Source of the DNA: Escherichia coli
GTDB taxonomy: Bacteria; Pseudomonadota; Gammaproteobacteria; Enterobacterales; Enterobacteriaceae
Direction: 5' to 3' (one strand)
Length of the DNA: 64,000 nucleotides
Assembly: GCF_013315695.1 (NCBI RefSeq)
Contig: NZ_CP054353.1
In this document: positions 58,596 through 58,671 of the stretch, in pieces
Numbering within the stretch: position 1 is the stretch's first letter
Layout of the letters: each line of letters starts with the position of its first letter
Position numbers and translations under genes: made by a program
The notes under the pieces: generated by a model
The model's input: only the letters and a program-made list of their open reading frames with translations
Told to the model about the DNA's origin: nothing
Database searches by the model: none

Positions 58596-58671
58596 GGCAC
58601 TTTAGCTCAGTGGTTAGAGCAGGCGACTCATAATCGCCTGGTCGCTGGTTCAAGTCCAGCAGGGGCTACCA
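58596..58671 (+). tRNA. ileY: tRNA-Ile2-like gene (anticodon CAU; could formally be read as Met) with a weakened acceptor stem
   Basis: 76-nt cloverleaf: D-arm GCTCAGTGGTTAGAGC, anticodon loop CUCAUAA, T-arm GCTGG-TTCAAGT-CCAGC, 3' CCA encoded; acceptor stem has G1-U72, A4/G69 mismatch, U6-G67. Confidence 0.7.

Follow-up and report, generated by a model that had tools for sequence, protein, structure and literature searches.

This analysis concerns ileY, a transfer RNA (tRNA) gene of 76 nucleotides (nt) in a 64,000-nt stretch of Escherichia coli DNA (contig NZ_CP054353.1), the whole of which is referred to here as the window. ileY is the second, dispensable chromosomal gene for tRNA-Ile2, the tRNA whose C34 is turned into lysidine by TilS, so that AUA is decoded as isoleucine (PMC9976931, PMC1635315); the first is ileX. 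The copy in the window has A at tRNA position 4 and U at position 72, an allele that is rare among complete E. coli genomes and in which the acceptor helix of the tRNA is predicted to be largely lost.

The window belongs to the E. coli chromosome, with serV-argVYZQ at 24.2 kb and the small RNA MicA at 27.7 kb. Six tRNA genes were called in it by ARAGORN, and one of these, with anticodon CAT, lies at exactly 58596-58671 on the plus strand. The Rfam model RF00005 scored this interval at 64.1 bits against a gathering score of 29 (E-values of 1e-11 to 1e-13), and the cmscan alignment spans the full model, positions 1-71, with pair 4:69 as the sole non-standard pair. An earlier note, made from the sequence alone, had described a body of tRNA-Ile2/ileX type with anticodon CAU and had proposed scoring by ARAGORN as a check, and the description holds: positions 7-42 and 44-71 are the same as in canonical ileX, and the CAU anticodon sits on an Ile2-type body without the signature pairs of initiator or elongator tRNA-Met. 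The gene is annotated as tRNA-Ile in RefSeq and labelled tRNA-Met by ARAGORN, owing to the CAT anticodon that it has in common with tRNA-Met. Both tRNA-Met identities were rejected on the signature pairs (wobble pairs are written with · and mismatches with ×). The elongator pairs U4-A69 and A5-U68 (PMC9976931 Table 1) are absent, window ileY having A4×G69 and C5-G68; the initiator features C1×A72, A11-U24 and the G29-G31/C39-C41 run (PMC1635315) are all absent as well, the corresponding elements being G1·U72, C11-G24 and an anticodon stem GGCGA.

The assignment to ileY follows from synteny. Annotated neighbours at the locus were compared in AF3, K-12, SMS-3-5 and others, and the order gabDT-lhgD-glaH-amylase, tRNA, ypjCB-recombinase fragment-ypjA is that of K-12 ileY, the tRNA gene standing between glaH with the amylase-family gene and ypjCB with ypjA. 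The ileY-specific upstream flank is common to 61 metagenomic ileY loci. An extra tRNA gene borne on a mobile element or island was considered and rejected, both flanks being native ileY flanks. The features of the locus are as follows.

58596-58671 (+): ileY, tRNA-Ile2 type, anticodon CAT, CCA encoded, rare A4/U72 allele (ARAGORN, Rfam, synteny)
58596-58602 (+): 5' strand of the acceptor stem, GGCACTT, positions 1-7 (sequence, pair table)
58599 (+): A4, which is C in all common alleles and gives the A4×G69 mismatch (alignment, cmscan)
58629-58631 (+): anticodon CAT, positions 34-36 (ARAGORN, sequence)
58638 (+): C43, giving G27-C43 (alignment, pair table)
58661-58667 (+): 3' strand of the acceptor stem, AGGGGCT, positions 66-72 (sequence, pair table)
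58667 (+): U72, which is C in all common alleles and changes G1-C72 to G1·U72 (alignment, folding)
58039-58595 (+): intergenic region upstream of ileY (promoter scan)
55786-58038 (-): alpha-amylase-family gene (ygaQ locus), intact, on the conserved side (synteny, divergence)
59428-60882 (+): ypjCB (DUF5507), intact, first gene of the highly variable, island-like side (synteny, divergence)

The acceptor stem of window ileY has Watson-Crick pairs at 2-71 (G-C), 3-70 (C-G), 5-68 (C-G) and 7-66 (U-A), wobbles at 1-72 (G·U) and 6-67 (U·G), and an A×G mismatch at 4-69, giving a total of four Watson-Crick pairs, two wobbles and one mismatch. The earlier note had read the stem accurately and had correctly given pair 27-43 as G-C, and all of the odd features that it listed are real; U6·G67 and G27-C43 proved, however, to be ordinary in ileY, and only A4 and U72 are special. 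Two ways in which its reading might have failed were also looked into: the ileY of K-12 is not identical to that of the window, differing at four positions and having seven Watson-Crick acceptor pairs, and there is no coordinate error in the stem assignment, ARAGORN and cmscan both giving the standard register. It is extremely improbable that the odd bases arose through errors of sequencing or assembly or that the stem was read in the wrong register, and this explanation was rejected. AF3 (UK) and MSB1_4I (Australia), complete genomes that were sequenced independently, have the same 76 nt, and A4 occurs also in AF14, AF10 and one metagenome contig; what can be said for an artefact is that ARAGORN shifts the register for the related A4/G71 allele (off by one in contig L188), whereas for the window allele the two programs agree.

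Allele frequencies were obtained as full-length exact matches (records) over 5,426 complete E. coli genomes, and only such matches were counted, the identity bands from short BLAST queries being ambiguous. Canonical ileX, with the acceptor stem GGCCCCU/AGGGGCC, gave 5,022 matches. Among ileY alleles, the K-12 type (GGCCCUU/AAGGGCC, seven Watson-Crick pairs) gave 1,727, the O157 type (C4, G28·U42) 375, the SMS-3-5 type (U6·G67 and G27-C43) 166, the O78 type (U6·G67) 148, a variant with U4·G69 four, and the A4/U72 allele of the window two, in AF3, a blood isolate, and MSB1_4I, from a rectal swab. At least ten ileY alleles are known here, A28×C42, U4·G69 and A4/G71 being included, and the common ones retain paired stems, along a compensatory path from C6-G67 through U6·G67 to U6-A67. 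G27-C43 is found in SMS-3-5-type and Escherichia albertii ileY alleles, where K-12 ileY and ileX have G·U. Judged from the sequences compared, the window allele is rare and recently derived, on an SMS-3-5-type background in which U6·G67 was already present. The SMS-3-5-type gene, also found in MS21-1, is its immediate parent and differs from it at two places, having C4-G69 and G1-C72.

Comparison with the better-known genes gives the same picture of the differences. ileX differs from window ileY at positions 4, 6, 43 and 72 and has the same identity features outside the acceptor stem. K-12 ileY agrees with window ileY in locus, neighbours, length, CAT anticodon, U6, A73 and CCA, and matches it over positions 5-42 and in the D-, anticodon- and T-arms; it has C4, U43, A67 and C72 where the window has A4, C43, G67 and U72, with a cloverleaf energy of -30.4 against -25.7 kcal/mol and an Rfam score of 73.8 against 64.1 bits.

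In nearest-neighbour folding predictions for unmodified RNA, the cloverleaf of window ileY had an energy of -25.7 kcal/mol, compared with -32.1 for the SMS-type parent and -32.8 for ileX. The minimum-energy fold of window ileY is without an acceptor stem, whereas the common alleles retain a cloverleaf-like one. Predicted acceptor pair probabilities were no higher than 0.09 in the window gene and at least 0.94 for pairs 1-6 in every common allele, including at least 0.96 for pairs 1-6 in the SMS-3-5-type parent; A4 alone gave 0.59 for pairs 1-3 and 0.12-0.19 for pairs 5-7. U72 contributes an A9-U72 pair to a competing helix, and U72 and G71 each lower the predicted acceptor pair probabilities. 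Compensatory re-pairing by U72 or G71, which was checked by hand, was rejected, no better helix being formed in the standard or a slipped register. The 64.1 bits of window ileY are fewer than those of every scored full-length ileX or ileY allele with C4, C71 and C72 (65.2-73.8 bits). Considered as a possible tRNA pseudogene, the gene scores well above threshold, has an acceptor helix that is predicted to be unstable, and has lost a key determinant.

That determinant is the pair C4:G69. tRNA-Ile2 genes were searched for in one genome per species with positions 4 and 6 left free, and 120 genes of other species, from Enterobacterales and Vibrionaceae, were obtained. C4-G69, C5-G68 and C6-G67 were each present in all 120, G1-C72 in 119 and the complete GGCCCCU/AGGGGCC acceptor stem in 118, and the changes in the T-arm were all compensatory. 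The pairs C4:G69 and C5:G68 are described as direct contacts and dominant identity elements of E. coli TilS (EcTilS) in PMC12514573, PMC11947777 and PMC1635315, all citing Ikeuchi 2005, and C4-G69 is also an isoleucine identity determinant for IleRS (PMC9976931). As C4:G69 is a determinant for both enzymes, the A4×G69 mismatch falls on the only acceptor pair that matters to both TilS and IleRS. Window ileY has kept C5-G68, the second EcTilS identity element, and the other isoleucine identity elements, A73, U12-A23, C29-G41, A35, U36, A37 and A38, are all present (list in PMC9976931 Table 1).

A minor but appreciable chance is given to the explanation that window ileY is a functional variant, in which the tRNA, once folded and modified, tolerates A4:G69 and G1·U72, is still read by TilS through G69 and C5:G68, and aids AUA decoding. 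The high tRNA score of 64.1 bits speaks for it, together with loops, D-, anticodon- and T-arms, A73 and CCA that are the same as in ileX, the presence of U72 at ileX loci of other bacteria, the function of the K-12 ileY product when expressed from a plasmid (PMC2408971), and the limitation of ileY polymorphism to stems and the variable loop, which hints at some remaining constraint on the core. It is opposed by the invariance of C4-G69 (120/120), a pair described as dominant for EcTilS and as a determinant for IleRS (PMC12514573, PMC9976931), by the prediction that the acceptor helix is mostly unformed, by the limitation of the allele to 2 of 5,426 genomes, and by the report that even the intact ileY of K-12 cannot sustain growth without ileX (PMC11480407).

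No near-consensus sigma-70 promoter was found close to ileY by a promoter scan of 58039-58595; the scan misses the ileX promoter too, with its weak -35 element, and the contrast between the two genes rests on the TATAAT read from the sequences. In ileX a perfect TATAAT, a -10 element that is kept across genera, lies 12 nt before the mature 5' end, and there is a strong terminator, whereas window ileY is without these expression signals. In AF3, a carrier of the window allele, a canonical ileX lies between mug and nfeF with the TATAAT -10 element and a 12-bp terminator. An ileY locus with these flanks is present in about 53 % of complete genomes and missing from about 47 %, and some genomes have ileX only and no ileY. 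In MG1655 the ileX unit is essential, and ileY can be deleted and is unable to replace ileX (PMC11480407). Hha binds the ileY locus in vivo, and H-NS affects that binding; K-12 ileY is also the AUA tRNA carried on CodonPlus RIL/RIPL plasmids (PMC2408971). For K-12 ileY these data point to low native expression, not to a defective tRNA, and expression of window ileY would probably be low as well.

Several signal-like elements were seen around the gene. A promoter-like TAGATA-16-TATCAT at 58362-58389 (+) has a terminator-like hairpin about 60 nt beyond it, at 58448-58475 (+); the pair lies about 120-230 nt upstream of ileY and may be due to chance, promoter-like sites being fewer than shuffle expectation. 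About 200 nt downstream of ileY there is a strong terminator-like hairpin at 58864-58885 (-), with eight pairs (six G-C) followed by TTTTTT, and no minus-strand open reading frame of at least 60 amino acids was found upstream of it. The same region is overlapped by a weak, sub-threshold Trp_leader match of 18 bits and by a hypothetical protein of 74 amino acids, 58683-58907 (+), annotated by PGAP in AF3 only.

Taken together, window ileY is probably a decaying spare copy and probably refractory to TilS, with AUA decoding left to intact ileX; the gene is read as such because its transcript is a poor predicted substrate and because ileX is intact in a carrier genome. The change C4>A breaks the C4:G69 pair that is read by EcTilS and used by IleRS, and C72>U weakens the terminal acceptor pair. 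The transcript would then have a badly folded acceptor helix and be a poor substrate for both enzymes, so that modification and charging would be expected to be lost. The gene would add little or nothing to AUA decoding, which the properly promoted ileX would carry out, and any leftover molecules in which C34 stayed unmodified would accept methionine and read AUG, harmlessly (PMC1635315). The suggestion of the earlier note that the gene is a decaying or variant copy, of uncertain competence for TilS and charging, is supported by the rarity and derived state of the allele and with a mismatch at a documented TilS and IleRS determinant. Annotation pipelines count window ileY as a normal tRNA-Ile, and models of codon usage or AUA decoding that are based on tRNA counts would overstate capacity in such strains.

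Several observations weigh against the interpretation of window ileY as a decaying copy. The tRNA score is far over the threshold, and D-arm, anticodon arm, T-arm, A73 and CCA are intact. The folding predictions leave out tertiary contacts and modifications. G69 is kept, so partial recognition by TilS is possible, and the TilS mutants described in the published accounts consulted are pair swaps and inversions, with no A:G mismatch among them. The E. albertii type strain has G1·U72 at its ileX locus, other hosts have it too, and on its own this wobble is probably tolerated. The K-12 ileY product works when supplied on the CodonPlus RIPL plasmid (PMC2408971), and ileY in general is not a dead gene, because the common alleles are paired and the K-12 product is functional. 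Finally, three hits in one stem, described below, are more than relaxed constraint alone predicts.

A switch of identity, by which C34 is left unmodified by TilS and MetRS charges the molecule, so that the gene supplies an extra elongator tRNA-Met reading AUG, is considered very unlikely. Unmodified tRNA-Ile2(CAU) does accept methionine and read AUG (PMC9976931, PMC1635315), and window ileY keeps CAU, A73, G2-C71 and C3-G70 and has lost the C4:G69 element of TilS. The tRNA-Met determinants U4-A69 and A5-U68 are nevertheless absent (PMC9976931 Table 1), the weak acceptor helix should hamper MetRS, EF-Tu and RNase P too, and apparent expression is low, with no nearby consensus promoter, Hha/H-NS at the locus (PMC2408971) and an ileY that is insufficient for growth (PMC11480407); E. 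coli, moreover, has no evident need for another tRNA-Met.

The history of the allele was followed in three haplotypes, those of the window, MS21-1 and AF14, taken as the nearest among complete genomes. MS21-1 differs from the window at 12 sites in 17.9 kb, two of which are tRNA positions 4 and 72; this sister haplotype has the intact SMS-type tRNA gene with C4 and C72. AF14 and AF10 have A4 and C72 together with C71>G, which gives a G2×G71 mismatch where the window has C72>U. This A4/G71 allele, also present in contig L188 (Rfam score 57.1 bits), thus belongs to the same clade, has the same A4, and its acceptor stem is degraded as well, U72 being confined to the branch of the window, AF3 and MSB1_4I. 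Over the full 64 kb the three haplotypes have 59 variable sites (0.09 %), and three of these lie inside the 76-nt tRNA gene, each on a separate branch (A4, U72 and G71). The expected number of tRNA hits is 0.07, the Poisson probability of three or more is 5e-5, and the local background rate is exceeded about 40-fold. Apart from this, the 64 kb contain a single further cluster, which lies in the spacers of the tandem tRNA-Arg array and leaves the tRNA-Arg and tRNA-Ser genes unaltered. No A4-only allele was found among the 5,426 genomes, the match list dropping from 100 % to 97.4 % identity.

Pure neutral decay does not fully explain why the 76 nt have three hits when the whole 64 kb have 59 (P about 5e-5). 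Relaxed constraint cannot exceed the background rate, so something beyond it contributes, perhaps selection that favoured a second hit once A4 was present, perhaps a mutational or recombinational process specific to the locus. The first of these would mean that A4 made a harmful tRNA and that U72 or G71 was then favoured as destroying it; as an example of harm, a tRNA that is modified and left uncharged might compete at AUA codons. Such selected silencing is held to be unlikely, and it is compatible with the decaying-copy explanation while explaining why there are more hits than expected. Three substitutions that arose independently on different branches, against an expectation of 0.07, fit it, as do the weakening of the same helix end by both U72 and G71, the absence of an A4-only allele, and the fact that the sole other cluster in the 64 kb is a spacer rearrangement in a tandem array. 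It is countered by the small number of A4 carriers (just five complete genomes and one metagenome contig), with which the missing intermediate may be an effect of sampling, by a mechanism of toxicity that is hypothetical, by the correct decoding of both modification states of tRNA-Ile2 (PMC1635315), and by low expression, which would keep toxicity small. In its particular form, a mildly poisonous tRNA-Ile2 that escaped TilS or IleRS after A4 and was then destroyed by favoured mutations, it is rather unlikely; if true, nature would have provided an in vivo readout of the C4:G69 identity element, and the inactivation of a tRNA gene would here have been adaptive.

Taken by itself, window ileY is unremarkable, being a rare and damaged allele of a redundant tRNA gene that was already known; only the cluster of three hits sets it apart from an ordinary variant. 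The series A4, A4/U72 and A4/G71, with the near-isogenic intact MS21-1, is a natural mutant set for the C4:G69 rule in vivo, and the A4 series is suited also to asking whether crippled tRNA-Ile2 molecules are costly. In AF14 and AF10, ileY is annotated by RefSeq/PGAP as a tRNA-Ile of only 71 nt that starts 5 nt inside the gene (L194:12506-12576, L195:12506-12576), a sign, like the shifted ARAGORN register in L188, that annotation programs have difficulty with this stem; the adjacent amylase-family gene is interrupted in both by an IS3-family element.

Mobile elements offer a further possible source of the 3' changes. In this explanation U72, and G71 in the sister branch, would have been imported from attachment (att) copies of elements that integrate at tRNA-Ile2 genes, by site-specific or short-patch homologous recombination and not by point mutation. 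ileX and ileY do share the attB used by SpLE1-like elements (PMC8767318). Partial 3' copies of this tRNA (about positions 32-76) with U72 (L199, L202, L204) or G71 (L210) occur in viral contigs, so that such variants are in circulation, and ileY-locus tRNA genes beside island DNA have replaced T-arms, one with U72. The explanation is nonetheless quite unlikely. The earlier note had placed the gene at an island boundary, which is true of the ileY locus in general, whereas the window has the common, native downstream flank with no element directly at the tRNA gene. The window has C43, whereas the att copies with U72 have T43, and no exact E. coli-type 3' half with T43/U72 or T43/G71 was found in the 5,426 E. 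coli genomes; A4, in the 5' strand and outside any att copy, would be left unexplained. When an element integrates and is excised in the ordinary way, the original 3' end is restored without a scar, and simple scarring of this kind was considered as the origin of U72 and found weak. No second copy of the tRNA 3' half, as an att repeat, was found elsewhere in the window with up to three mismatches allowed.

In LR-72 and several metagenome contigs, island DNA abuts the 3' end of the tRNA gene and the T-arm is replaced by a type usual among other enterobacterial species. In LR-72 (L007:6203-6278) the end of a CP4-57-type island lies about 100 nt from the 3' end of ileY and replaces ypjCB-ypjA; the genes at this end encode DUF4942, DUF957 and a CbtA/YeeU toxin-antitoxin pair, and the T-arm is of the U50-A64/AAAC type shared with 25 other enterobacterial species. 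In NBRC 107761, the type strain of E. albertii, the ileX locus (L011:339-414) has U72 and a T-arm type that is common in other enterobacterial species, and adjoins foreign-looking DNA; the ileY locus (L012:262-337, -) has a canonical acceptor stem, C47, and C54 replacing the universal T54.

Divergence around the locus was compared between the window and two reference strains. The tRNA gene differs by 2.6 % from that of SMS-3-5 and by 5.3 % from that of K-12, the corresponding values being 1.8 % and 3.9 % for the upstream intergenic flank, 1.2 % and 5.6 % for the downstream intergenic flank, and 0.3 % and 3.2 % for the amylase-family coding sequence. Divergence leaps from 0.3 % in the latter, upstream of the tRNA gene, to 9.4 % in ypjCB; between strains, ypjCB is 9-13 % and the amylase gene 0.3-3 % divergent. 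Both genes are intact in the window (750 amino acids for the amylase-family product and 484 for ypjCB), whereas ygaQ and ypjC of K-12 are pseudogenes with internal stops.

The 61 metagenomic ileY-locus tRNA genes comprise eight alleles, including A28×C42, G28·U42 and a second A4 allele. As the search pattern had fixed tRNA positions 1-3 and 5-25, diversity was restated for the 52 free positions, of which eight segregate (15.4 %), compared with 8.7-17.3 % in the flanks. On these sequences ileY appears to be under weak constraint, with a tRNA diversity about that of the flanking non-coding DNA; the segregating positions are confined to the acceptor stem, the anticodon stem and the variable loop, and some residual constraint may act on the core. 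ileY is thereby unusually polymorphic for a tRNA gene, whereas ileX is essentially invariant from Vibrionaceae to Escherichia, and the two form a clean natural contrast between an essential and a dispensable copy of a tRNA gene. The G28>A allele, with A28×C42 in the anticodon stem, was present in four of the 61 loci (L136, L150, L167, L184), with an Rfam score of 65.2 bits, and is thus a further allele with an impaired structure that reaches an appreciable frequency.

Elsewhere in the window, the array spacers at 24379-24440 and 24657-24718 (argV-argY-argZ-argQ) differ from those of MS21-1 and AF14 at 24393, 24414, 24415, 24418, 24427 and 24431, and at 24681, as if repeat units had undergone a single recombination or conversion. 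The MicA small RNA, 27684-27755 (-), is intact, with a score of 83.9 bits, and lies in its expected place between luxS and gshA.

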